DNA of 64,000 nucleotides from an uncultured Bacteroidota bacterium. Its GTDB lineage: Bacteria > Bacteroidota > Bacteroidia > Flavobacteriales_F > PHOS-HE28. Position numbers and translations under genes: made by a program. Positions 2,427 to 16,665 of the stretch are shown here, one piece after another (position 1 is the stretch's first letter; each line of letters opens with the position of its first letter). The stretch is taken from positions 68,667-132,666 of the forward strand of contig CADEDY010000004.1 of the NCBI GenBank assembly GCA_902826215.1. Reading direction: 5' to 3'. The notes below the pieces were generated by a model. The model saw nothing but the letters and a program-made list of their open reading frames with translations, did no database searches and was not told the origin of the DNA.

Positions 2427-3790
2427 TGGTCTTGCGCGGATCCATCCTTACTTCCGGAAAGTGGCGTGCAGGGCTCCTTTGTGTCGTGCTCTTCCTCTGT
2501 CTCTGGCCTGGACTGAGCGACCACGTGAGCGTGGAATGGGGCATGCGCTACTTCTGGCTCCTGCTACTACCGGTGATCATACGTGTCCGTGAGCCAGGGA
2601 ACTTTTCCTTGCGCTACCTCTTCGTCCTCGCTCCTTTGTTCGCGCTGGCTTTCTGGCTGCCACATCCGCTGTTCCGATTCGGTGTGCTGTTCGCTGCGAT
2701 CTTCCTGGTGATCGAAGCCTTCGTGGGCAAATTGGATCGCTTGGCTCCGGTCTTTGCTGTCCTCGTGGCACCCATCACCCATTACTTCATCAACACCTTC
2801 GGGTTCCACGTGCGATTGAGCATCAGCAAGGTCGTCGCTCGAACATTGAAGAGCATCGACCCGGAGGCGATGGACATCGGCAATGCGCTCATGTACCAGG
2901 GGCAGGAATTCCATGTGGACCCGGAATGCATGGGACTTCGGATGATCACCACTTCCTTGATCGTGACCATGGCGCTCATCGCCCTCCGCGAAAGACGCTT
3001 GAAGACCTCGCTTTCCGAGTTCGCGCTACCTGTTCTCCTGCTCGTGACCTTCGTGTTGGTCGCCGTTTCGAACTACGTGCGCATCCTACTGTTGGTGGTC
3101 AGTGCCGCGCCTGCGGGTGGTTTCTGGCATGAAGTCATCGGGTTGATCAGCTGGCTGCTCTTCGTGTTGCTACCCATGATCCACATTGTGGAGCGTTGGG
3201 ACCGGGTTCGATCCGTTGCCTCAATGACCAAGACCGTGTGGCCGATCTGGAAACAACGTCTTGTCACCACCGCGCTTCTCCCGACCATGCTGGTCGGGAT
3301 GATCCACCCGGTGGTACCAGTGGAGGATGAACGCGACCTCTTCGCTGAGCAATTGAACATACCCGGCTGTGAACGGACCATCCTTCCCAACAACGTGGTG
3401 AGCTTCACCAGTGATCATCTGCAGATCTTCATGAAACCCGGAAAGGCATTCTACAGCAACGACCACCACCCGATGAGCTGTTGGATCGGGAGTGGCTACC
3501 ACTTCACGCACGAAGTCCTCGAACCCTTCCGTGATGGCACGATCTGCTTCGGGCAATTGAGCAATGGCGCATCCACACGGTACTCCGCATGGTGGTATGA
3601 CAATGGTTCCACCCGCACCTGCGGTCAGTTGGAGTGGCGTTGGCTTGCCGCACTTGGCGAAGGTCCGTTCCGGTTGATCAATGTCACGGCCGACACGCCT
3701 CAAGAATTGATGCGGGAGGTATCGCGGCTTTACCGACCGTTGGAGGCTGAAGGGCACCTACTGAAAGGAACGCAGATGACGCTGATGTAG
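2426..3790 (+). CDS. Exosortase (XrtN-like) with a ~170-aa Cys/Trp/His-rich C-terminal extension
   Basis: Polytopic membrane protein (about 8 TM). It contains the exosortase catalytic motif ECMGLRMITTSL (Cys-x-Gly-Leu-Arg), and conserved Arg/His lie downstream. The ATG at 2426 overlaps the TGA of the upstream VIT gene (TGATG), indicating translational coupling. The six-frame track starts the ORF at 2360, but 2426 avoids the gene overlap. Confidence 0.8.
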   Translation: MVLRGSILTSGKWRAGLLCVVLFLCLWPGLSDHVSVEWGMRYFWLLLLPVIIRVREPGNFSLRYLFVLAPLFALAFWLPHPLFRFGVLFAAIFLVIEAFVGKLDRLAPVFAVLVAPITHYFINTFGFHVRLSISKVVARTLKSIDPEAMDIGNALMYQGQEFHVDPECMGLRMITTSLIVTMALIALRERRLKTSLSEFALPVLLLVTFVLVAVSNYVRILLLVVSAAPAGGFWHEVIGLISWLLFVLLPMIHIVERWDRVRSVASMTKTVWPIWKQRLVTTALLPTMLVGMIHPVVPVEDERDLFAEQLNIPGCERTILPNNVVSFTSDHLQIFMKPGKAFYSNDHHPMSCWIGSGYHFTHEVLEPFRDGTICFGQLSNGASTRYSAWWYDNGSTRTCGQLEWRWLAALGEGPFRLINVTADTPQELMREVSRLYRPLEAEGHLLKGTQMTLM

Positions 3791-6528: not shown

Positions 6529-6561
6529 CAGCTGATCCGCTAATCATCCCATCAGCTAATC
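6527..6561. repeat. Right terminal inverted repeat of the four-helix-bundle cassette (ATCAGCTGATCC...CCATCAGCTAATC)
   Basis: It is the reverse complement of the left-hand GATTAGCTGATGG. It contains the cassette gene's start codon (6526-6528) and the preT stop codon (6560-6562). Confidence 0.65.
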
Positions 6562-7882
6562 ACTTCCCCAAGTAGGTATCGATCCCATGCGCCGCCTTCT
6601 TCGCTTCAGCCGCCGCGTTCACCACTTCCACACCACCGTTCATCGCATCCCCTGCAGTAAAGTATTTGGCGTTGGTCGTTTGGAAGCGCTCATTCACCAC
6701 GATGCGCCCTTTCTGATCCAACATGAGGCCTGAGACCTGCTTCAACAGTTCCACTTGTTTTCCTTGACCGGTCCCCAGCAACACCATATCACAAGGTTCC
6801 AGGAACTCGCTGCCCTTGATGGCTTCCAGCTTCCCATTGGCGGAACTGTTCCGGATGAACTTGACCCCGGTCACGGAGCCATTGCCCATCACTTCAACGG
6901 GCGTCACATTGAACAGTGCCTTCGCACCGCTCTTCTTCGCCAGATCGAACTCGAAGGTGTACGCACCCATCTCTTCCGGACCACGACGATAGGCTATCGT
7001 CACGCTCTCCGCGCCCATCCGGCAGCTTTCGCTCGCGGCATCCATCGCTGTGTTTCCGCCCCCGAGCACGATCACCTTGTTGCCGACCGGCGTTGCTTGG
7101 TGCTTGTTCCGCAGTACTTCCACGAACTCAAGCGCACCCATCACGCCTTTCTTGTCTTCGCCGGGAATGCCTAGCGCCGAAGTGCCGCCCAAGCCGATGC
7201 CGATGAAGATGGCGTCATAGTCCTTCTCCAAGCGCTCAAAGTCAACACGACCGGTCACTGGCTTGTTGTAGTGGGCGTTGAAACCGAACTGCTCCTGCAA
7301 GTAAGCGATCTCATCAACCGCTTCTTCGTTGGTGAGCTTGTACGGTGCGACGCCATAAACACACAAGCCACTTGGCTTTTCGCGCGCCTCGTAGATATCC
7401 ACCGCGTGGCCCAACATCCGCAATTCACACGCACAGGAAACACCCGCTGGCCCCGCACCGATCACAGCTACCTTCTTGCCTGTCGGCTTCCCGGTGATGA
7501 AGAGCTTCTTCTTCGCGTGGATCACCTTGTCCGTGGCATGTGCCTGCAAGCGCCCGATCTCGATCGGCTTCACATCGCTTTTGGTGTACACGCAGGCCCC
7601 TTCGCACAGTTCCTCCGTCGGACAGACGTTCCCGCAGGCATGTCCCATCCAGTTGCTGTCGTAGATCGTCTTCGCGGCCCCGTCCTTGTTGTCGTTGTTG
7701 ATCTGCCGGATGAAGGTCGGGATATCGATCCCCGTGGGGCACGCGTTGATGCACGGCGCATCGTAGCAATACAGGCAGCGCGAACTCTCGTAGTACGCCT
7801 CGGTATCGCTCATCAGCGGCTTCTTCGGGTGGAAGTTGGCTGTGAACTCGGCTTCGGTGGTGGGTCGTTTGTATTCTGCCAT
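6560..7882 (-). CDS. preT: Dihydropyrimidine dehydrogenase subunit PreT (glutamate synthase small-subunit-like, FAD/NAD(P) + [4Fe-4S])
   Basis: MAEYKRPTTEAEFTANF...YCYDAPCINACPTGIDIP...CGNVCPTEELCEGAC, followed by Rossmann motifs VAVIGAGPAG and VIVLGGGNTAMD. The six-frame track starts this ORF at 8110, but the 76 codons upstream of 7882 merely translate the tandem DNA repeat, so the start is placed at 7882. Confidence 0.88.
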   Translation of the reverse strand: MAEYKRPTTEAEFTANFHPKKPLMSDTEAYYESSRCLYCYDAPCINACPTGIDIPTFIRQINNDNKDGAAKTIYDSNWMGHACGNVCPTEELCEGACVYTKSDVKPIEIGRLQAHATDKVIHAKKKLFITGKPTGKKVAVIGAGPAGVSCACELRMLGHAVDIYEAREKPSGLCVYGVAPYKLTNEEAVDEIAYLQEQFGFNAHYNKPVTGRVDFERLEKDYDAIFIGIGLGGTSALGIPGEDKKGVMGALEFVEVLRNKHQATPVGNKVIVLGGGNTAMDAASESCRMGAESVTIAYRRGPEEMGAYTFEFDLAKKSGAKALFNVTPVEVMGNGSVTGVKFIRNSSANGKLEAIKGSEFLEPCDMVLLGTGQGKQVELLKQVSGLMLDQKGRIVVNERFQTTNAKYFTAGDAMNGGVEVVNAAAEAKKAAHGIDTYLGK

Positions 7883-7887
7883 GGGGA

Positions 7888-7934
7888 ATGGGACGCAGAT
7901 GGCGCGGATCTTTATGATTTCCGCTGATATGATT
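7888..7934. repeat. ~47-bp repeat element, copy 1 of a tandem pair with 80-bp period (gggacgcagatggcgcggatctttatgatttccgctgatatgatttg)
   Basis: Direct repeat of 7968-8015. Member of the GATGACGCGGATC family. Lies immediately upstream of the preT start. Confidence 0.7.
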
Positions 7935-7967
7935 TGTCGGTGTGGTGCGTGGGGTGCTTCATGCGAT

Positions 7968-8015
7968 GGGACGCAGATGACGCGGATCTTTATGATATCC
8001 GCTGATATGAGTTTG
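7968..8015. repeat. ~47-bp repeat element, copy 2; left inverted repeat of the GxxExxY cassette
   Basis: gggacgcagatgacgcggatctttatgatatccgctgatatgagtttg. The reverse complement of its core is found at 8421-8449. Confidence 0.7.
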
Positions 8016-8409
8016 TATGGACCTTCCTTTTGACTTGGGGCTTCTTGCCGAAGTTCAGGAGCAAGCCGACTTCCACATCGGTGGCTTTGAGGTAGTTGAT
8101 CAACTGGCACTCGTGCTCTTCGCAGATGCTCTCCGCAGCTTTGAGTTCCACGATGACCAGTCCCTCGACGATAAGGTCGGCATAGTAGCTACCGACCTCC
8201 ACGCCATCATAGAACACCGTGATCGGTTGTTGACGCTTTACCTCGAGCCCAGCGGAGATTAACTCATGGAACATGGCGTTCTCATAGACCTTTTCCAAAA
8301 ACCCGTAGCCCAAGGCGTTGTAGACCTTGTAGAACATCTGAATGACCTGCTCGGTCAGTTCAGAATGCATGTAGTTCTCTTTATTCAGATCAGGCATGGC
8401 AATTCGCAT
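7990..8409 (-). CDS. GxxExxY protein (TIGR04256-like, PD-(D/E)XK-related) inserted between the beta-ureidopropionase gene and preT
   Basis: YKVYNALGYGFLEKVYENAMFHEL ... VIVELKAAE ... GLLLNFG match the family signature. The 3' end of the ORF runs into repeat copy 2. Confidence 0.75.
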   Translation of the reverse strand: MRIAMPDLNKENYMHSELTEQVIQMFYKVYNALGYGFLEKVYENAMFHELISAGLEVKRQQPITVFYDGVEVGSYYADLIVEGLVIVELKAAESICEEHECQLINYLKATDVEVGLLLNFGKKPQVKRKVHTNSYQRIS

Positions 8410-8420
8410 TGATCCGCGCT

Positions 8421-8449
8421 CATCATAAAGATCCGCGTCATCAGCGTTC
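8421..8449. repeat. Right inverted repeat of the GxxExxY cassette (catcataaagatccgcgtcatcagcgttc)
   Basis: It is the reverse complement of gaacgctgatgacgcggatctttatgatg, which is copy 2 at 7968. Confidence 0.7.
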
Positions 8450-9315
8450 TACAACTCCGTCAGCCGTCCATACGTCTCCGGCCTCCGATCCCTGAAGAAC
8501 TGCCATGTGCTCCGCACCTCCTCGATCATGTCCAGGTCGAATTCTGCGACGAGCAGTTCATCGTCATCACGCGAGGCTTGCTTGAAGATCTGTCCGCGCG
8601 GATCCACGAAGTAGCTCTGCCCATAGAACTTGCCGAGGTTCCAAGGCTTCTCCTCCCCTACACGGTTGATGCAGCCCATGAAGTAGCCGTTCGCCGCAGC
8701 GTGCGCGGGTTGCTCCAGCTTCCAGAGGTATTCGCTGAGACCAGCCACGGTGGCGCTGGGGTTGTAGACGATCTCGGCACCGTTGAGGCCAAGGCAACGC
8801 GCGCCATCGGGGAAATGGCGGTCGTAGCAGATGTACACGCCCACCTTGGCGTACTTCGTCTGGAACACCGGATAGCCGAGGTTGCCGGGCTTGAAGAAGA
8901 ACTTCTCCCAGAAACCGCTCGTGTGCGGGATGTGGTTCTTGCGGTACTTGCCCAGGTAGGTGCCATCCGCATCGATCACCGCGGCGGTATTGTACAGCAC
9001 GCCGGCCTGCTCCTTCTCGTAGATCGGAACGATGATCACCATGTTGTACTTCTTCGCGTACTGCGCCATCAGCTCCGTGGTGGGACCGGGCACGCTCTCC
9101 GCGCTCTCGTACCATTTCCGGTCCTGGCCCGGGCAGAAGTAGGGCGTGTTGAAGATCTCCTGCAAACACAGGATCTGCACGCCTTGCTGGCCGGCCTTCT
9201 CGATGTACGGGATGTGCTTCTGCACCATCGCATCGATGATCTCCGGTATGGTGCCTTCGCCCTCCGTCTTAGGGAGGCTCATCTGGATAAGGCCGCTCTT
9301 GATGTTCCTCGGCAT
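8449..9315 (-). CDS. Beta-ureidopropionase (N-carbamoyl-beta-alanine amidohydrolase), nitrilase/CN-hydrolase superfamily
   Basis: CN-hydrolase fold with the catalytic Glu-Lys-Cys context (…ILCLQEIF…, …YRKNHIP…, …VGVYICYDRHFPD…). Sits in the pyrimidine-catabolism operon. Confidence 0.85.
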   Translation of the reverse strand: MPRNIKSGLIQMSLPKTEGEGTIPEIIDAMVQKHIPYIEKAGQQGVQILCLQEIFNTPYFCPGQDRKWYESAESVPGPTTELMAQYAKKYNMVIIVPIYEKEQAGVLYNTAAVIDADGTYLGKYRKNHIPHTSGFWEKFFFKPGNLGYPVFQTKYAKVGVYICYDRHFPDGARCLGLNGAEIVYNPSATVAGLSEYLWKLEQPAHAAANGYFMGCINRVGEEKPWNLGKFYGQSYFVDPRGQIFKQASRDDDELLVAEFDLDMIEEVRSTWQFFRDRRPETYGRLTEL

Positions 9316-9327
9316 GGGTTGAATGAT

Positions 9328-9370
9328 TGGAACGCTGATGACGCTGATTTAGGTGATCCGCGCTGATGGG
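9328..9370. repeat. ~45-bp repeat family copy (atggaacgctgatgacgctgatttaggtgatccgcgctgatggg)
   Basis: Direct repeat of 9444-9491. Located immediately upstream of the beta-ureidopropionase start. Confidence 0.6.
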
Positions 9371-9443
9371 TCTTGGGTTGCTGGAACCAATGTTAAGAGG
9401 AAGTACGCGCATTTCCTAGACTGGTCCAGGTGGGTGCGGAAGG

Positions 9444-9491
9444 ATGGAACGCTGATGACGCGGATTAGGCTGATCAACGCGGATCTAAGGG
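9444..9491. repeat. ~45-bp repeat family copy (atggaacgctgatgacgcggattaggctgatcaacgcggatctaaggg)
   Basis: Shares the GAACGCTGATGACGCGGAT core. Confidence 0.6.
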
Positions 9492-9519
9492 ACTGTTGGG
9501 TTGGACTAGGGTGATGTTT

Positions 9520-9610
9520 GGGCGTGCCCCTCGCAAAAGCCTCGGGTCGGGCTATCCGCTATACTCCTCGCTCGTTCCTCGCTGCGGGGTGCCGCTTCTA
9601 TCCCTCAGGC
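9520..9610. repeat. ~95-bp intergenic repeat family, copy 1 (GGGCGTGCCCCTCGCAAAGCCTCGGGTCGGGCTATCCGCTATACTCCTCGC...CTGCGGGGTGCCGCTTCTATCCCTCA)
   Basis: Near-identical to 11771-11897. Matches 14836-14933 and 10136-10262 in reverse complement. Confidence 0.7.
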
Positions 9611-9632
9611 AAGCGCTATAATATCAACCATA

Positions 9633-10121
9633 TCACCGGACTGGCCTATCCAATACTCGCAATGCCGCATCCGTAAGATTCGTCCGAGCAGGATGCCCCA
9701 TTCCTAAGAAGACCTTGAGCTTTTCGCCTAGAGTTTCTGGGGCAAGATCCTCCACGCTCCACATTGCTTGTCCCATCACTTCCGGAGGCCACAGCAACAT
9801 TGTGTCCCACCTTGCTGAACCCGTAAGTCTCGATGCAATTTCAGTCCCCAAGTACTCCGTGAGCAACTGCAACATGACCTCTCTTCCCTTTGCGTAAAAG
9901 GAGACCTGTTTGCAGTCCTTCTTCGACATGTAGAAGACGATAAACCAATCATCAATAACAGGTCCTTCCGCCGTCGTGTATTCTCCGATCAGGCGAACAT
10001 CGCTCAACACGATTTCCCCCACACGTTCGCCTTGGATCTCCCAAATCAGCTTACCACCCTCGCTGAAGACTCTACCCGAGAGTTCGGCTTCATCTCGCTC
10101 GGTCTTGCTCTTGACAGTCAT
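9633..10121 (-). CDS. Hypothetical cytoplasmic protein (no recognisable domain), start placed at MTVKSK
   Basis: 162-aa ORF between the beta-ureidopropionase and dihydropyrimidinase genes, flanked on both sides by copies of the ~95-bp repeat. The longer 198-aa ORF in the track would begin inside a repeat copy. Confidence 0.4.
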   Translation of the reverse strand: MTVKSKTERDEAELSGRVFSEGGKLIWEIQGERVGEIVLSDVRLIGEYTTAEGPVIDDWFIVFYMSKKDCKQVSFYAKGREVMLQLLTEYLGTEIASRLTGSARWDTMLLWPPEVMGQAMWSVEDLAPETLGEKLKVFLGMGHPARTNLTDAALRVLDRPVR

Positions 10122-10135
10122 CCTTGAGGAGTTAT

Positions 10136-10262
10136 GGATTTCGCGTGAGCGATTGCAGCGGAAAGCCCACAGCGCGGTAATCCGCGCGAGGACTTGCAGG
10201 CCCGGGTCGGAGCCCGGGCTGAACTCCAAGCGCGACGGCGAGTCTTCGAGCCGGCACGCCCA
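10136..10262. repeat. ~95-bp repeat family, diverged copy (reverse orientation)
   Basis: The reverse complement ggttttgggcgtgccggctcgaag...gtcctcgcgcg...cgctgtgggctttccgctgcaatcgctcacgcgaaatcc aligns with the copy at 14836-14933. Confidence 0.5.
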
Positions 10263-10278
10263 AAACCTTCCTCATCTG

Positions 10279-10328
10279 CATTTCATATCAGCGTTAATCT
10301 GCCCGATCCGCGTCATCTGCGTTCCATC
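10279..10328. repeat. ~45-bp repeat family copy (reverse complement: gatggaacgcagatgacgcggatcgggcagattaacgctgatatgaaatg)
   Basis: Same GGAACGCAGATGACGCGGATC ... GCTGATATGA organisation as 7888-7934. Confidence 0.6.
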
Positions 10329-10331
10329 TTT

Positions 10332-11711
10332 TCAAAGCATCCCGCTCACCTTGTTCCGCTTCACAAAGCTCCCATACCCCTTCTTGATCCGCACTTCGCC
10401 GTTGTGTACCGCCACCTGGCCGCGGAGGATGGTGGTCTTCACCTTGCCGGTGAGTTGCATGCCTTCGTAGCCGCTGTAGTCCACGTTCATGTGGTGCGTT
10501 TTGGCGCTGAGGGTGTGGCGCTCGTTGGGGTCGAGCAGGATGATGTCCGCGTCGCTGCCGATTCCGATGGTGCCTTTGCGCGGGAACATGCCGAAGATCT
10601 TCGCCGGGTTGGTGGCGGTGACTTCCACGAACTTGTTCACGGTGATGCGCTTCTTGTTCACGCCTTCGCTGAAGAGCAGTTCCATGCGGTGCTCGATGGC
10701 GGGGTGACCGTTCGGGATCTTCGAGAAATCGGCCGAGCCCATGGCCTTCTGCGCCATCATGAAGGGGCAATGGTCGGTGGCCACCACTTGCAAGCTGCCT
10801 TGTTCGATGCCGGCCCAGAGCTGCGTTTGATCCTTTTTCTCGCGTAGCGGCGGGCTCATCACCCACTTGGCGCCGTCGGCCCGTTCGTAGAGCGAGGCAT
10901 CGAGCAGCAGGTATTGGATGCAGGTCTCGGCGAGCACGCGCTGGCCCCGGCGCGCAGCATCGCGCACGGCGTTGAGCGCGCCTTCGCAGGTGAGGTGTAC
11001 GATGTACGCGGGCACGCCAGTGTAGCTGGCCATGTCGCAGAAGCGGTGACTGGCCTCGGCTTCGGTGATCTCCGGCTGGCTGAGGTAGTGGTACAGCGGC
11101 GAGAGCTTGCCTTCGCTGCGATGCTTCTGCACGAGGTAGTCGATCATGTCGCCGTTGGTGGCGTGTACGATCACCATGCCGCCGTGCTCCTTCACCTCCT
11201 GCATCAGGCCCACCATCTGGCGGTCGTCGATCATGAGCGCGCCCTTGTACGCCATGAAGGTCTTGAAGCTGGTGATGCCTTCCTGCTCGATCATCGTGCG
11301 CACTTCCTTCTTCGTGTCGTCGTTGAAATCGGTGACGGCCATGTGGAAGCTGAGGTCGCCGTAGAGGTTGCCGTTCATGCGGCCCTGCCAGCTTTCCAGC
11401 GCGTGGCGCAGGCTCTTGCCTTGTGTTTGCAGGATGAAGTCGATCACCGTCGTGGTGCCGCCATGCAGCGCGGCCAGCGTGCCGGTCTCGTAGTTGTCGC
11501 TGCTGAAGGTGCCCATGAAGGGCATGTCCAAATGCACGTGCGGATCGATGCCTCCAGGGAGCACGAACTGGCCTTTCGCGTCGATCACTTCGGCGTCGGG
11601 TGCATGCAGATCATGCCCGATGGCCTTGACGTGTTCGCCTTCGATGAGGACGTCGGCGCGGTGGAAGTCGGCGGCGGTGACGACGGTTCCGTTCTTGATG
11701 AGGAGGCTCAT
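10332..11711 (-). CDS. Dihydropyrimidinase / D-hydantoinase (cyclic amidohydrolase)
   Basis: MSLLIKNGTVVTA...VLPGGIDPHVHLDMPFMGT...: metal-binding HxH and the amidohydrolase-superfamily pattern. 459 aa. Confidence 0.9.
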   Translation of the reverse strand: MSLLIKNGTVVTAADFHRADVLIEGEHVKAIGHDLHAPDAEVIDAKGQFVLPGGIDPHVHLDMPFMGTFSSDNYETGTLAALHGGTTTVIDFILQTQGKSLRHALESWQGRMNGNLYGDLSFHMAVTDFNDDTKKEVRTMIEQEGITSFKTFMAYKGALMIDDRQMVGLMQEVKEHGGMVIVHATNGDMIDYLVQKHRSEGKLSPLYHYLSQPEITEAEASHRFCDMASYTGVPAYIVHLTCEGALNAVRDAARRGQRVLAETCIQYLLLDASLYERADGAKWVMSPPLREKKDQTQLWAGIEQGSLQVVATDHCPFMMAQKAMGSADFSKIPNGHPAIEHRMELLFSEGVNKKRITVNKFVEVTATNPAKIFGMFPRKGTIGIGSDADIILLDPNERHTLSAKTHHMNVDYSGYEGMQLTGKVKTTILRGQVAVHNGEVRIKKGYGSFVKRNKVSGML

Positions 11712-11770
11712 GGATCAGAAAATCAGATGATCAGACGATCAGTTGATCGAATGCGGTTCCAAGATAATGA

Positions 11771-11897
11771 GGGCGTGCCCCTCGCAAAGCCTCGGGTCGG
11801 GCTATCCGCTGTACTCCTCGCAGGGGCGATGCATGCTCTTCCTTCGGGCGAAGCATGCTTCGCCCCTACTGCGGGGTGCCGCTCCTATCCCTCACGC
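11771..11897. repeat. ~95-bp repeat family, copy 2, carrying an internal 16-bp perfect palindrome GCGAAGCATGCTTCGC
   Basis: gggcgtgcccctcgcaaagcctcgggtcgggctatccgctgtactcctcgc...ctgcggggtgccgctcctatccctcacgc. The 3' end of the element supplies the last codons and the TAG stop of the NCS1 permease. Confidence 0.7.
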
Positions 11898-13552
11898 AGC
11901 ACACGTTTACCCTTCAACGCCCAATACACGGCGAACGCCACACCCGTTCCGCTGAACCACGAGAGCGTGTAGAGGACCTCCAGCGGCTTCACCCAATATC
12001 CGATGATGGCAACGAACACACCAGCCACCAAAGCCACGATGGCTGCTCTGTTCACACCCGCGTGCGGTCCATCCTCCATGTACAGGTCAGCGATCACCAA
12101 CGTGCGCTTGCGGATGATAAAGTAGTCGCAGAGCAGGATGCCGAGCACGGGGCCGAGCAGTCCGCTGATGAAGATGAGGATCCCGCTGATCTCGTTCATC
12201 AACCACCACGGGCAGATGATGATGCCAACGAGTCCCGCCATAACACCACCAACACGGAAGCTGATCTTCTTCGGGAACAAATTGCTGAACGCATTCGCCG
12301 GTGCGATCACGTTCGCCGCGATGTTGGTGCTGAGCGTAGCGATGAGCATGGCGATCTGCGCGAAGATGACCACACCCGGGCTCTTGAACTTGTCCACCAG
12401 CGAGACCGGATCCCACGGCGCATCCTCGGCGATGAGCACATCATCGAAGGCCACCACGGCCGCGCTGGTGACGAAGATGCCCACGAACGAATAGAAGAGC
12501 ATGGTTCCCGGTAGCCCGATGAACTGTCCGGCTAACTGGTCCTTCTGGCTCTTCGCATGGCGTGTGATGTCGGAAATACTGATGGACATGGTGGCCCAGA
12601 AACCGACCATGGCGGTGAACCACATCAGGTATTGCCAATAGCCGACCTCGCTTGCACCGGCACTGTCGGCCTTGAACTCCAGCTTGGCCGACTCATGACC
12701 TTCCGCATCCTTGAACTGGATTTGCACCTGCGCATCCATGCCGATGTTGATTGCGGTCATCGGCGCGGTGATCGGCATCCATTCGCCCGGCCTGGTTTCG
12801 TTTTGCCTTGGATAGCTCAACCGATAGTGTGTGGCCTTCGGCGTGCCATCGGTGTTCAAGAGCGGTGACAATTGTAACGTGCGGCCGGGCGCATCGGCGT
12901 AAGGCAACTGCGTGATCGTGCTTTGCTGTAATTGCTTCCCTTGCTCCAATGCATTGGCAAAACCACCCGCACTATTCGCGCCCCACACGATCAGCACGAT
13001 GCCGATCAGGATCAATATCGGCGCACTCCAGTCCTCGAGCCAACGGATGCTCTCGGTGCCTTTCCAGATGAACCAGATGTTGATGAGCCAGAACACGCCG
13101 AAGCAGATGAACTTGCCGATGCTCAGCGCCACATCACCTTCCTGACCTGTTGCCGCGTTCCAGATGGAGTAGATCGCCAGCCCACCGATCCACGTCTGCA
13201 CACCGAACCAGCCGCAGGCGACGATGGCGCGGAGCAGACTCGCGATATGGATGCCTTGCGTCCCGAAAGCCGCTCGCCCTTGCACGGGGAACGGGATACC
13301 GTACTTCACGCCCGCATGACCGTTCAATACCATCGGTATGGTGATCACCAAGTTCGCCAGGCCGATGATCACCAAGGCCGCCCGCCAGCTGAGGCCCGCA
13401 CGCATCATGTACGAAGCGAGCAGGTAGGTGGGGATGCACACCGCCATGCCCACCCACAGCGCGGCGAGGTTCCACTTGGTCCAGGTGCGCTGCTCGGGCG
13501 GGATGGGCGCGAGGTCCGGGCTGTAGAGCGGGGAACGGGTGATATCTTCCAT
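11885..13552 (-). CDS. NCS1-family nucleobase:cation symporter (cytosine/uracil/hydantoin permease-like) with a ~95-aa hydrophilic insertion
   Basis: 12 predicted TM segments with the NCS1 pattern (…WNLAALWVGMAVCIPTYLLAS…, …GIPFPVQGRAAFG…). Start assigned to MEDITRSP at 13552. An alternative ATG 15 codons upstream at 13597 is not excluded. Confidence 0.8.
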   Translation of the reverse strand: MEDITRSPLYSPDLAPIPPEQRTWTKWNLAALWVGMAVCIPTYLLASYMMRAGLSWRAALVIIGLANLVITIPMVLNGHAGVKYGIPFPVQGRAAFGTQGIHIASLLRAIVACGWFGVQTWIGGLAIYSIWNAATGQEGDVALSIGKFICFGVFWLINIWFIWKGTESIRWLEDWSAPILILIGIVLIVWGANSAGGFANALEQGKQLQQSTITQLPYADAPGRTLQLSPLLNTDGTPKATHYRLSYPRQNETRPGEWMPITAPMTAINIGMDAQVQIQFKDAEGHESAKLEFKADSAGASEVGYWQYLMWFTAMVGFWATMSISISDITRHAKSQKDQLAGQFIGLPGTMLFYSFVGIFVTSAAVVAFDDVLIAEDAPWDPVSLVDKFKSPGVVIFAQIAMLIATLSTNIAANVIAPANAFSNLFPKKISFRVGGVMAGLVGIIICPWWLMNEISGILIFISGLLGPVLGILLCDYFIIRKRTLVIADLYMEDGPHAGVNRAAIVALVAGVFVAIIGYWVKPLEVLYTLSWFSGTGVAFAVYWALKGKRVLREG

Positions 13553-13621
13553 GCGACTTGTTCGGTACAGCAATGTAATCGGAATCGAACGTTCCATTCG
13601 GAAGCGTGTACTTCGTACTGC

Positions 13622-14338
13622 ATGGGCCGCCTCACCACCCTACTCCTTATTTGTACACTCCTGTGCGTTTCGACCGTTCGCGCACAAAAGACAGTCTACT
13701 TCCCCGTGCGTGGTGTGACCTGGCCGGTATGCGAAAGCGTACCCGATGCCTTTGTCCATCGCGTACGCCACGTCCTCGCCGATAGCGCGAAGATGTTCCC
13801 CGAATATCCGGACCCGGTGCCCTTCACCTGCGACCTCCTCAAAGGCCTTCAAGAAGCGATGACCGATGATTCCGTACGCTACCACTTCGAGCGTCTGTCG
13901 CAGCGCTATTGGTCGGTCGGTCCCCACTATAACAACGTAGAGCGCTACATCGATCGACACATTGACTTTCACTTGGCCATCGCATGCACAGGGCACTTCT
14001 TCTGCGACGTGCGCATCATGGGCCTGAAGAAGCTCTACGACTACCGACGCATGCGGCCGATGGTTTGCGCGACGCAAGAGCACTACGTCCAATTGGAAAA
14101 GCAGGATCGGCAAGCCGTGCGCTACCTGATCCATGTGCTGGAGAACACGCCGTGGAGCATCAGTGGCAGCGAGAACGCGACCATCCACGAGGTCTACATC
14201 CGGGAGATCGCCAAGACGCTCGATCTGTTCACCGGACAAGAACACGTCGACCCCAAGGATCTGCGGCAGTACCTGCCGCTCACCGATGAGAAGTTGCGCG
14301 TAGCGCTGATCGATTGGCGGAAATGGCTCGACCCATGA
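13622..14338 (+). CDS. Secreted hypothetical protein (signal peptide MGRLTTLLLICTLLCVSTVRAQ)
   Basis: The longer track ORF 12932-14338 overlaps the permease on the opposite strand. The first ATG followed by a signal peptide is at 13622. Confidence 0.5.
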   Translation: MGRLTTLLLICTLLCVSTVRAQKTVYFPVRGVTWPVCESVPDAFVHRVRHVLADSAKMFPEYPDPVPFTCDLLKGLQEAMTDDSVRYHFERLSQRYWSVGPHYNNVERYIDRHIDFHLAIACTGHFFCDVRIMGLKKLYDYRRMRPMVCATQEHYVQLEKQDRQAVRYLIHVLENTPWSISGSENATIHEVYIREIAKTLDLFTGQEHVDPKDLRQYLPLTDEKLRVALIDWRKWLDP

Positions 14339-14832
14339 GGTGTTTGTTGATCCTTGCATTCTGTACCGCGAACGCCTTGTGCGCGCAGGATGCTGATGCC
14401 CTGGCACGAGCACTTGAACGCAAGAGTCCACGCGCATTGGACCGCTGGATGAAGCGCGAACTGCATGAGCACCGCAAAGGCACGCGGATAACCTCACCGG
14501 GTAGTAGCTACACGAGCCACTCCGCTACCTACGACACCCTTGTCGCTTGGCTGCGGCTACAACCCGGCGTGGTGGATGCCGAATGGGACCGCTGCATCGG
14601 CAAGCTCGATCTCTGGCCAGGGCACTCCACCATCGGTGTGCAGGTGCGGCTTGGTGGTGTGGTGCGCGAGCGCTGCTACACGTTGCAGGAAGGACGGCCC
14701 GGCACCATCAAACTACCCGGCTGGCGGCCGAAAGTGCGGAAGACGCGGGAAGAGTTGAAGCTGGTGGGGATAAGGGAATGCGCGGGGTTCGTGACGGAGC
14801 AGCGAGGGTATTGCGCGGGGTTGTCGCGATGA
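14335..14832 (+). CDS. Secreted hypothetical protein (signal peptide MRCLLILAFCTANALCAQ)
   Basis: Its ATG overlaps the upstream stop (ATGA at 14335-14338), indicating translational coupling with the preceding gene. Confidence 0.45.
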   Translation: MRCLLILAFCTANALCAQDADALARALERKSPRALDRWMKRELHEHRKGTRITSPGSSYTSHSATYDTLVAWLRLQPGVVDAEWDRCIGKLDLWPGHSTIGVQVRLGGVVRERCYTLQEGRPGTIKLPGWRPKVRKTREELKLVGIRECAGFVTEQRGYCAGLSR

Positions 14833-14835
14833 AGG

Positions 14836-14933
14836 AATTCGCGTGAGCGATCGAAGTGGAAAGCCCACAGCGAGGCACGAGCGAGGACTTGCAACGAAGA
14901 GCGCGACCCGAGGCTTTGCGAGGGGCACGCCCC
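14836..14933. repeat. ~95-bp repeat family, copy 3 (reverse orientation)
   Basis: The reverse complement ggggcgtgcccctcgcaaagcctcgggtcgcgctcttcgttgcaagtcctcgctcgtgcctcgctgtgggctttccacttcgatcgctcacgcgaattcc matches the 9520 and 11771 copies. Confidence 0.65.
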
Positions 14934-14935
14934 AA

Positions 14936-15313
14936 TTAGAAAGATGGATCACCGCGACGCTGCAAATCCGCAACAGCTCCTGTGCATGAGAGAATCCAGG
15001 AGCCCATTTTGGCAAAGTCCAAGCTGAAGGCCACAGTATCCTTACCAGTTTCGATATCGAACATCTCAGGCCGCGAAATGGAGAGAAGCCATCCACCAAC
15101 AACCGAACCGGCTTCAGTTCCGTTTGATTCGACGATCTCGGCTTGAGAGAACGTGAGCTTCAGTCGACGATGTTCTGAAGTTAGGATAATCACGATCGTA
15201 GGACCCATGCGAAGGTCTTCGATCACGAAGTCCCGAATGTCCAGTTCCTCCTCGTTGATCACGAAGTCCACGACTGGAACGAAACCTACGACGTCGATGA
15301 GATCAAAGACCAT
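14936..15313 (-). CDS. Hypothetical acidic protein, last gene of the beta-alanine/pyrimidine operon
   Basis: Open frame abutting the aminotransferase stop. No recognisable motif. Confidence 0.35.
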   Translation of the reverse strand: MVFDLIDVVGFVPVVDFVINEEELDIRDFVIEDLRMGPTIVIILTSEHRRLKLTFSQAEIVESNGTEAGSVVGGWLLSISRPEMFDIETGKDTVAFSLDFAKMGSWILSCTGAVADLQRRGDPSF

Positions 15314-16665
15314 CACACACACGCTTCATCCGCGATCGCTATCGCCTTGCTCAAGATCTCCATCCCCTCATCCACCCCCGCCTTGTCGATGCACAGCGGC
15401 GGCGCGACGAAGATCCAGTTCCAACGCACGAAGGTGAACATGCCCAGCTCGTTGATCTTGGCGGCCACCTTGTTCATCACTGTCATTTCCTCGGGCTTCG
15501 CGTTCCACGGCGCCATCGGCTCCTTGGTGTCGCGGTTCTTCACCAGCTCGATGCAACCCAGCAGGCCGGTGTTGCGGAAGTCGCCGATGCTCGGGTGCTT
15601 CTCTGCCAGCTTCGCCACGCTCTCGTCCACGTAGCGACCCATGTTGGCGGCGTTGGTCACGAGGTGCTCTTCCTTGTAGATGTCGATGACGGCGTTCGCG
15701 GCGGCGCAGGCCACGGCGTGCGCGCTGTAGGTGAGGCCGATGGGCAGCGGCTTGTCGTCGAAGTGTTTGATGATCTCCTCGCGCACGATGAGGCCGCCAA
15801 GCGGGATGTAGCCGCTGGTGATCCCCTTCGCCATGCACAGGATGTCCGGCACCACGCCGTGGTGGTCGATGCCGAACCATTTGCCGGTGCGCCCGAAGCC
15901 GCTCATCACCTCGTCGCAGATGGTGAGGATGCCGTAGCGGTCCGCGATGGCCTTCACGCCTTTCCAGTAGCCCGGCGGGTATTTGATGCAACCGCTGCTG
16001 CCGCTCTCGCCTTCCAGCATGATCGCCGCGATGTACTGCGGGCCTTCATACTTCACGATGCGCTCCAGGTGCGACAGCGCGTTCTCCGTGCATTCCTCCG
16101 GCGTTTTGCTGTTCCACGGGCAGCGGTAGAAATACGGGTTCTCCACGTGGATGATGTTCGGCACGCCCTGGCTGTCGTGCGGCAAGCCGCGCGGATCGCC
16201 ACCGGCGCTAAGCGCTCCGTACGTGGCACCGTGGTAGCTCTGGTACAGCGTGATGATCTTGTGCCGGCCGGTGTACAAACGCGCGAGCTTCATCGCGTGC
16301 TCCACCGCCTCGGTGCCGCCGTTGGTGAAGAAGGTGCGGTTGAGGGACCCAGGCGTGATCTCCGCCAACGTCTTGCCCAGTTTACCGCGCGCCTCGGTGA
16401 TCATGCCCGGATGCACGTAGCTCACCTCGGCCATCTGCTTCGCCACCGCCTCCGCCACTTTCGGATGCCCATGCCCGATGTTCACGTTCATCAGCTGCGA
16501 ACTGAAGTCGATGTAGCGTTTGCCGCTTCGATCGTGCAGGTAAATGCCCTTGGCGCGCTCGATGTTCAGCGGGGCCAGACCGCTCTGCTTGCTCCAGGAG
16601 AAAATGGTGTGCTCGAGATTGTCCTTGAGGATCTCGGCGGGGTTCACCCGAAATGAAGTTTCCAT
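15313..16665 (-). CDS. Class-III (omega) aminotransferase, likely beta-alanine:pyruvate transaminase
   Basis: PLP fold-I class-III pattern (…TNGGTEAVEHAMKLAR…, …DEVMSGFGRTGKWFG…) with the lysine context CMAKGITSGYIPLGG. Co-operonic with the semialdehyde dehydrogenase. Confidence 0.85.
   Translation of the reverse strand: METSFRVNPAEILKDNLEHTIFSWSKQSGLAPLNIERAKGIYLHDRSGKRYIDFSSQLMNVNIGHGHPKVAEAVAKQMAEVSYVHPGMITEARGKLGKTLAEITPGSLNRTFFTNGGTEAVEHAMKLARLYTGRHKIITLYQSYHGATYGALSAGGDPRGLPHDSQGVPNIIHVENPYFYRCPWNSKTPEECTENALSHLERIVKYEGPQYIAAIMLEGESGSSGCIKYPPGYWKGVKAIADRYGILTICDEVMSGFGRTGKWFGIDHHGVVPDILCMAKGITSGYIPLGGLIVREEIIKHFDDKPLPIGLTYSAHAVACAAANAVIDIYKEEHLVTNAANMGRYVDESVAKLAEKHPSIGDFRNTGLLGCIELVKNRDTKEPMAPWNAKPEEMTVMNKVAAKINELGMFTFVRWNWIFVAPPLCIDKAGVDEGMEILSKAIAIADEACV

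Follow-up and report, generated by a model that had tools for sequence, protein, structure and literature searches.

A structured Flavo-1-type repeat, probably acting as DNA, at hypervariable gene sites of Flavobacteriales genomes

The region described here is a 64,000-nucleotide stretch (the window) of contig CADEDY010000004.1 (positions 68,667 to 132,666 of the forward strand, assembly GCA_902826215.1) from an uncultured Bacteroidota bacterium of the Flavobacteriales_F lineage PHOS-HE28, and the element in question is a structured repeat, or unit, of about 100 nucleotides (nt) that occurs there in four copies, c1 to c4. The copies lie in and around a minus-strand gene cluster at 6560-16665 which encodes a class-III aminotransferase, an NCS1 permease, an amidohydrolase, a CN-hydrolase and a dihydropyrimidine-dehydrogenase-like protein (Table 1). 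On sequence grounds we read the amidohydrolase as a dihydropyrimidinase and the CN-hydrolase as a beta-ureidopropionase, and a cluster of this composition fits a putative route of reductive pyrimidine catabolism. Exact sequence look-up of the CN-hydrolase protein of the window returned no record. Units are given below in the orientation of the Rfam family Flavo-1, with a 5′ (GCGTGAG) end and a 3′ tail. The amidohydrolase gene sits between c4 and c2, both of which turn their tails towards it, and c1 (5′ end GCCTGAG) and c4 turn their 5′ ends towards a small gene for a 162-amino-acid (aa) protein, here called a cargo gene.

A preliminary description of the window had reported the repeat as a family of four copies, and the family proved to be real: BLASTN with the four copies, a repeat finder and R1, a covariance model derived from related copies, agreed on the same four places and on no others in the 64 kb, all within 9.5-15 kb, and the earlier coordinates were off by a few bases at most. 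The copies are related as then stated, although the identities measured by BLASTN span 80-96% and not 85-95%: c1 and c2 share 96% over 52 nt and 93% over 30 nt, c1 and c3 80% over 96 nt, and c3 and c4 84% over 63 nt, c4 being alignable by its 5′ half only. We estimate the probability that four copies placed at random all lie within 5.4 kb of 64 kb at about 0.002, so the clustering is not due to chance. The palindrome noted earlier in c2, GCGAAGCATGCTTCGC at 11848-11863, is present and is perfect across 20 nt (11846-11865); the "50-bp insert" said to contain it is a variant of an apical stem-loop that varies in the family as a whole. This hairpin makes c2 stand out from the other copies in predicted fold (z-scores of -3.2 and -3.5), and, being common to the related locus L067, it is older than the split between the window and L067. 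The two open reading frames (ORFs) said to translate the repeats, 10914-11972 and 14713-15102, exist and share the peptide GVPLAKPRV, which is the translation of GGCGTGCCCCTCGCAAAGCCTCGGGTC read in codons from GGC GTG to CGG GTC; the ORF at 10914-11972, which reads through the repeat, has a higher G + C content at first (GC1, 0.82) than at third codon positions (GC3, 0.62), the pattern of a non-coding frame.

Table 1. Coordinates of the repeat copies and of the neighbouring genes in the window
Feature	Position	Strand	Evidence and context
c1	9517-9612	-	R1 87.1 bits, full length; canonical tail; Rfam Flavo-1 34.7 bits, E=1e-4, at 9541-9615
c4	10141-10264	+	R1 45.3 bits, full length; diverged
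c2	11768-11899	-	R1 79.7 bits; Rfam Flavo-1 24.7 bits; same position in L067 and L097
c2 enlarged apical hairpin	11823-11866		Sequence; 20-nt self-match of 100%
c3	14839-14935	+	R1 107.2 bits; nearest to family consensus; Rfam Flavo-1 33.6 bits at 14836-14912
CN-hydrolase gene	8449-9315	-	Pfam CN_hydrolase; 94-97% identity in 9 loci; conserved backbone; flanks hypervariable site A
162-aa cargo gene	9633-10121	-	Enclosed by c1 and c4, head to head; GC3 0.59
Amidohydrolase gene	10332-11711	-	Pfam Amidohydro_1; 88-99% protein identity in 12 related loci; conserved backbone
NCS1 permease gene	11885-13552	-	Pfam Transp_cyt_pur, 2e-87; 555 aa
Two small genes	13622-14832	+	Signal-peptide-like N-termini by eye; 5′ side of c3, between NCS1 and aminotransferase genes
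128-aa ORF	14936-15322	-	Tail side of c3; GC3 0.56; elsewhere a different ORF or none

The strand called forward in the preliminary description is opposite to the Flavo-1 model strand, and the family had not been recognised. When Rfam was searched by E-value, the other strand matched Flavo-1 (RF01705) over the whole 76-nt model (positions 1-76), with E-values from 1e-4 to 0.07 for c1, c3 and c2 and scores below the gathering cut-off of 42 bits; c4 was undetected. At the curated thresholds there was no match in the window or in 18 related loci (131 kb), and Flavo-1 emerged in the E-value mode only. Flavo-1 was published in 2010 from Flavobacteria (PMC2864571); Rfam files it in the class "Gene; sRNA" (small RNA) with no function assigned, and a review ranked it among the most abundant Rfam sRNA families (PMC9029176). 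Its seed alignment (Weinberg et al. 2010, PMC2864571) includes sequences from Flavobacterium johnsoniae that have the same frame, GCGUGAGGGAUAGAAGUGGAAAGCCCGCAG...GGACUUGUAACGGAUAGCCCGACCCGGA; to one of these (NC_009441.1/2016697-2016781) the copies in the window show 84-86% identity, and a related copy shows 92% (71-76 aligned nt). The two share the bulged hairpin, the boxes GAU.G.AGCGGAAA and AGCGGA.AGC, the frame GCGUGAGGGAU...AGCCCGACC and the host range, Flavobacteria. They differ in that all copies tested here score under the Rfam cut-off (best 34.7 versus 42), are GC-rich, and have a closing helix and a 3′ hairpin of about 28 nt in addition to the 76 nt of the model. The identity of 84-92% to the seed, at scores below cut-off, marks the repeat as a GC-rich subfamily of Flavo-1 under the Rfam threshold, one overlooked by standard annotation.

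The structure of the unit was predicted with RNAalifold from an alignment of 74 canonical copies (A1). The unit measures about 100-110 nt and consists of a 5-bp closing helix (P0), GCGUG/CACGC, around both the bulged Flavo-1 hairpin and a second, small 3′ hairpin. Invariant GCAGCGGAAAGC-like boxes occupy both arms of the hairpin, and the apical stem-loop is free in sequence and length. The ends are sharp, G..TTC/GCGTGAG ... GGCACGCCC/AAA (slashes mark the boundaries), and in the boundary profile conservation falls away abruptly at 7 nt upstream of GCGTGAG and at 3 nt past CACGCCC. They form a short imperfect terminal inverted repeat, TTTnnGCGTG...CACGCnnAAA, with about 8/10 nt matching. Several copies carry nested mini-hairpins at GCAG^CGGAAAGC; c4 is among them, with GCCCGGGTCGGAGCCCGGGC in its 3′ arm, as in L031 and L040, and its tail hairpin is the variant GGC..GCC instead of CCC..GGG.

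All three helices are maintained by compensatory changes. In A1, 40 copies have CG and 33 have GC at pair 13-84, and pair 17-80 occurs as AU (31 copies), UA (26) and CG (15). Among 145 model-aligned copies, changes on both sides were seen in 17/25 pairs, and the covariation score was 0.242 against 0.067 for column shuffles (0/500 reached the observed value) and at most 0.041 for slid partners. In copies collected with no requirement for the canonical tail, covariation was seen also for the closing helix (GCGUG..CACGC versus GCGUU..AACGC) and for the tail stem (CCC/GGG, GGCGC/GCGCC, GGUGU/ACACC and GGCGUU/AACGCC). The basic unit showed no excess stability over shuffled sequence (z from +0.6 to -1.1). 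In the Flavo-1 orientation G-U pairs were not in excess over A-C mismatches (21 versus 19) in a test of low power. No terminator-like tail or U-tract was found, and the sole weak match to an intrinsic terminator was specific to the flank of c2.

To see the unit in other genomes, a pattern of 22 nt from the conserved tail was run on species-representative genomes, metagenome contigs and viral contigs. It matched 99 genome stretches, nearly all from Flavobacteriales/Bacteroidota metagenome-assembled genomes (MAGs) of sludge, freshwater and soil with several per MAG, as well as 119 metagenome stretches and one viral contig; matches in Flavobacteriales MAGs and metagenome contigs came to about 310 in total. 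Genome-derived loci were taken as pieces of at most 8 kb around the units and other loci as pieces of at most 14 kb, and the genes around the units were called with a GC3-based caller. A profile search of the 99 genome loci and the window gave 157 matches. About 51 copies lay beyond the seeded ones in 663 kb, or about 1 per 13 kb, from which a rough extrapolation, biased upward by clustering, puts the number in the order of a hundred copies per genome. The units are almost always intergenic, 142 of the 157 matches having no overlap with called genes and the remainder overlapping mostly short, doubtful ORFs, and they are also widespread as singletons away from cargo. The nearest stop codon lies at a median distance of 57 nt, a quarter of the units being within 21 nt of one. 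Relative to the upstream gene, 14 units had the same and 11 the opposite orientation, hence no strand bias. In 119 copies, no excess of matching flanks indicative of a target-site duplication was found for k=2-8 at any boundary offset.

These data allow two RNA-based explanations to be weighed. The units might be cis-acting RNA structures in operon transcripts, such as stabilisers between cistrons or in 3′ untranslated regions, processing sites or insulators, kept by selection and folding on both strands. The strong covariation, the proximity to stop codons and the location inside an operon-like cluster would agree with this, as would a study of F. psychrophilum in which some 5′ transcribed regions coincide with Flavo-1 matches; in the same study, matches were either sense or antisense to transcripts, many lay outside transcribed regions, and the evidence for expression was equivocal (PMC9723704). 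The lack of an orientation preference together with the lack of a G-U excess argues against a strand-specific RNA role. A cis-acting RNA would moreover have no U-tract and no unusual stability in its basic form, and it leaves the sharp ends, and the targeting by IS110-family elements and the link to cargo turnover described below, without explanation; on balance we consider it rather unlikely. That the units are genes of trans-acting sRNAs, as the Rfam class implies and as a conserved structure might suggest, is very improbable. Their copy number is high with many subtypes per genome, they occur in either orientation within operons, one of them overlaps a coding region, nested insertions and interruptions by insertion sequences (IS) are tolerated, and no promoter or terminator signals were found.

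Comparison of related loci revealed that the gap between the CN-hydrolase and dihydropyrimidinase genes is a hypervariable site (site A). It was compared in 16 loci: 10 genome-derived loci, in which the flanking proteins are 88-99% identical, and 6 metagenome loci assigned by clustering of their flanks. In 10/10 genome-derived loci the site contains two inverted units with their 5′ (GCGTGAG) ends facing each other, and in the 16 loci the enclosed DNA, of 333-1436 nt, belongs to 13 unrelated cargo families. In the 10 aligned genome-derived loci, homology between loci breaks and resumes at the 5′ ends of the units, and the unit proximal to the dihydropyrimidinase gene is orthologous across loci with different cargo. 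Two unrelated chromosomal sites have the same layout, with 7 cargo families in 9 loci (site B) and 8 cargo families in 10 loci (site C). The G + C content of the cargo is typically 5-10 points under that of the locus. Cargo proteins include DUF4238 proteins (twice), a TonB_C protein, a CAP12/Pycsar-type TIR protein, an ApeA-HEPN protein, a HerA-like ATPase, a XamI/Eco57I restriction-modification fusion, and TPR and MORN proteins; several of these are of a defence type. The units are the constant landmarks of hypervariable intergenic sites, and unrelated single genes of lower G + C content swap between or beside them.

In the window, the cargo of site A is the 162-aa gene, whose protein has no Pfam match and whose homologues at site A were found only in L056 and L102 (a JGI contig). 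The 13 unrelated cargoes at this site bear out the earlier proposal that the gene bracketed by copies 1 and 4 was imported. Import holds for the cargo genes and not for the repeats, which keep conserved positions across species while the adjoining DNA turns over. A 36%-identical relative of the cargo protein is encoded in another organism (L103, JGI contig Ga0310689_0018065, 1-4500) within an attC-type cassette array of six small same-strand genes, whose spacers are imperfect inverted repeats of about 110-150 nt with AAC...GTT ends.

This relative, a cassette in a true attC array, raises the question of whether the units are attC-like sites of an integron-type cassette system, since they too are imperfect palindromes with a variable apical region that border single-gene cassettes. 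The units have no RYYYAAC...GTTRRRY core sites and their closing helix GCGTG...CACGC has the opposite polarity, the units that flank cargo are inverted and not direct, no integrase gene was seen in the loci, and, of the flanking units, at least one remains in place when the cargo is exchanged. We rejected the integron attC reading on the polarity of the core sites and the orientation of the units, and regard it as scarcely credible.

The second variable place in the window is the junction between the aminotransferase and NCS1 genes, where c3 lies. An allelic series was found: in L027 the two genes are 12 nt apart with no unit; in L044 there is a unit with a 59-aa ORF on its tail side; in L026, two genes and a unit; in L085, a unit and a different ORF; and in the window, two genes, c3 and the 128-aa ORF. 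From this series it follows that the DNA on both sides of c3 is variable. The two plus-strand genes at 13622-14832, neither of which has a Pfam match, are present in L026 and missing in L027 and L044, in keeping with the earlier suggestion that they were imported. The GC3 values of the small ORFs at 9633-10121 and 14936-15322, 0.56-0.59 versus 0.71-0.89 in the surrounding catabolic genes, are consistent with a foreign origin of both.

A separate low-complexity family, made up of GATCAG/ATCAGC-type words, occurs at 9328-9367, 9445-9484, 10287-10331 and 11712-11760 and adjoins the tail ends of units. The one instance that was checked stands immediately upstream of the dihydropyrimidinase start codon (ATG at 11711), with the same arrangement in L026, L033 and L089; the family may be an element of the 5′ untranslated region in this clade.

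The NCS1 gene and c2 overlap, the former by its 3′ end and the latter by its 5′ end. Inside c2 and its 5′ extension, at about 11885-11902, lie the final five codons of the gene, V-L-R-E-G, and its TAG stop (11885-11887, within c2). In the window, where the unit carries the apical insert, the permease ends in ...YWALKGKRVLREG (...GKRVLREG, then stop), and in L067, with the same unit and the same insert, it ends in ...YWVLMGKRVLREG (...GKRVLREG, then stop). In L097, with a unit lacking the insert, it ends in ...YRVLMGKRVLR, the stop being in the GCGTTAGGG of the unit. In L026 and L044, which have no unit at this place, it ends in ...YWALMRRSV, and after the stop there is a small, unrelated palindrome, ttgt(a/g)ca(a/g)cgatcgctgcacaa. 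Thus c2 does supply the last residues and the stop codon of the permease, as had been proposed; the unit-free orthologues end differently, and coincidental similarity is not borne out. The terminus was remodelled, and not by a clean insertion as first described: about 60 nt of the version with no unit, among them the old stop codon and a hairpin, are replaced where the unit is present. The frame now runs five codons into the unit to the TAG. The unit may have landed on, or recombined at, the NCS1 stop codon, and the altered C-terminus would be a by-product of the unit.

The NCS1 protein itself carries a mid-protein insert of about 100 aa (12637-12960, residues ~205-300), at which the Pfam match falls into two stretches. 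The nucleotide alignments to L097 and L044 break exactly there, and this segment is much more variable than the remainder.

The overlap of c2 with a gene end resembles the small non-coding repeats of Neisseria (Correia elements) and Rickettsia (Rickettsia palindromic elements, RPE), which can give gene ends new residues or a stop. Those elements have defined terminal inverted repeats, with TA duplications in Correia, whereas no duplication was found in the units here. More generally, the units could be classical MITEs (miniature inverted-repeat transposable elements), internally deleted derivatives of an IS with a DDE transposase that are cut and pasted in trans. A length of about 100 nt, sharp ends with the short imperfect terminal inverted repeat, a multicopy intergenic distribution and the one unit that overlaps a gene end would suit such elements. 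No parent insertion sequence was found in the DNA around the units. Opposed to this reading are the lack of a 2-8-nt target-site duplication in the 119 copies and of any transposase in or beside the loci examined save two IS110-family copies, with none in about 35 cargoes inspected. The compensatory changes in the stems between subfamilies also oppose it, and they point to recognition of structure and not of the ends alone. We regard MITEs as an improbable explanation.

The points at which IS110-family elements interrupt units are fixed, at model positions 57 and 13. In L018 (101-2558), two units, one on each side of a gene with a CAP12/Pycsar TIR domain, break off at model position 57 and then continue into identical sequence; a 337-aa ORF in which DEDD_Tnp_IS110 and Transposase_20 domains were recognised abuts one of them. 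In L034, L088 and L005, units are cut at position 13, followed by a common sequence. About 0.8 kb from the cut unit of L088 (1260-2715) there is a frameshifted ORF that gave no Pfam match and has 35% identity by BLASTP to the L018 transposase (E=1e-17). Repetitive extragenic palindromic (REP) sequences are dispersed palindromes that are known to be targeted by IS110-family elements, for instance IS621 and ISPpu9/10.

REP elements of Proteobacteria, with the bacterial interspersed mosaic elements (BIMEs) and REPINs that they form, resemble the units in being GC-rich imperfect palindromes that are intergenic, present in high copy, free of target duplications and often alternating in orientation. 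The unit described here is 3-4 times longer (about 100-110 nt versus 20-40 nt) with two hairpins, it lacks the GTAG head and has the ends G..TTCGCGTG / CACGCCCAAA, and its pairs are separated by 0.3-1.4 kb of variable coding cargo and not by short spacers. The genes of REP-associated tyrosine transposases (RAYTs) are flanked by inverted REPs; no RAYT/Y1 transposase was present among the cargo ORFs examined. Layouts like that of sites A-C are also known from the pdif modules of Acinetobacter plasmids, which are flanked by inversely oriented sites; the resemblance is one of layout only. Both pdif and attC are short sites, structured or of the recombinase type, that set the borders of exchangeable gene modules. 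The unit is structured and far longer than a 28-bp XerC/XerD site, it has no attC core, and units are also widely found as singletons away from cargo.

Taking the evidence together, we interpret the units as a structured, REP/BIME-like repeat that acts at the DNA level and marks hot spots of cassette exchange, and we put the probability of this at roughly 0.6. Such a repeat would be selfish or domesticated, and a protein would recognise it by its structure and conserved boxes; it might serve as a substrate for insertion or recombination, or as portable homology, in the exchange of accessory-gene cassettes. In the searchable literature, Flavo-1 was not described as a dispersed repeat at cassette sites or as an IS110 target, and in the literature on REP or MITE elements in Flavobacteria and on cassette systems we found nothing on this element.

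Several observations weigh against this interpretation. Covariation alone cannot separate DNA hairpins from RNA hairpins, nor does the G-U comparison, with its low power. Inverted arrangements prevail in the raw counts of adjacent units: 29 pairs in genomes were head-to-head, 19 tail-to-tail and 9 tandem, and in metagenomes 22, 6 and 8, respectively. The head-to-head excess among close pairs (37/49) falls after syntenic clustering to about 6:4:4 (head/tail/tandem) over about 14 independent sites, which is not significant, and a general rule of head-to-head arrangement is not supported. At the c3 site, variable genes are found to either side of the unit. The similarity of paired units does not exceed that of random pairs (0.767 versus 0.783), and the idea that they are the ends of recent transposons was rejected on that account; since, in addition, the dihydropyrimidinase-proximal unit of site A is orthologous despite differing cargo, the pairs are better seen as resident landmarks. 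Orthologous unit positions across many species indicate that most copies are old and resident, and resident units could be retained by selection for some function in the host, RNA functions included. Units may also merely accumulate where DNA is dispensable, which would make the association with cargo a correlation and not a cause. Among the genome-derived loci there was no filled/empty pair with a precise insertion, the NCS1 case being a 60-nt replacement, and no recombinase or transposase able to move units or cargo was identified in the loci examined.

A more specific proposal within the DNA-level interpretation is that Flavobacteriales have an undescribed system for the exchange of gene cassettes, with the Flavo-1-type units as its recombination sites. 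Inverted units would then delimit slots in which single accessory genes, often for defence, would be inserted or replaced by a structure-recognising recombinase or an HUH enzyme. We offer this tentatively, as a possibility and not as our expectation. One head-to-head doublet, in L149, has a spacer of only 45 nt.

Units or Flavo-1-like segments were also seen on other replicons. The IMG/VR contig UViG_3300020026_000065 (L100), classed as viral, has three diverged units at 1789-2214, two of them head to head and 240 nt apart. Plasmid NZ_CP018939.1 of Bacteroides fragilis (L108) has a Flavo-1-like segment of about 65 nt in unannotated DNA (3501-3565); such segments, 77-79% identical to c3, were also found in 33 other plasmids of Bacteroides, Phocaeicola and Butyricimonas, most of them predicted to be conjugative. 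In the one plasmid examined (L108), the segment lies 12 nt past the stop codon of a gene for a 197-aa "recombinase family protein".

If the cassette-system proposal is true, one of the most abundant "sRNA" families of Rfam would be a DNA element. The results as a whole offer a concrete and testable hypothesis on the role of the Flavo-1 motif, which has been listed as an sRNA since 2010. For the annotation of MAGs, the repeats account for spurious ORFs, such as those with GVPLAKPRV peptides, and for altered gene ends, and the units may serve as practical markers of variable gene slots in the genomes of Flavobacteriales.

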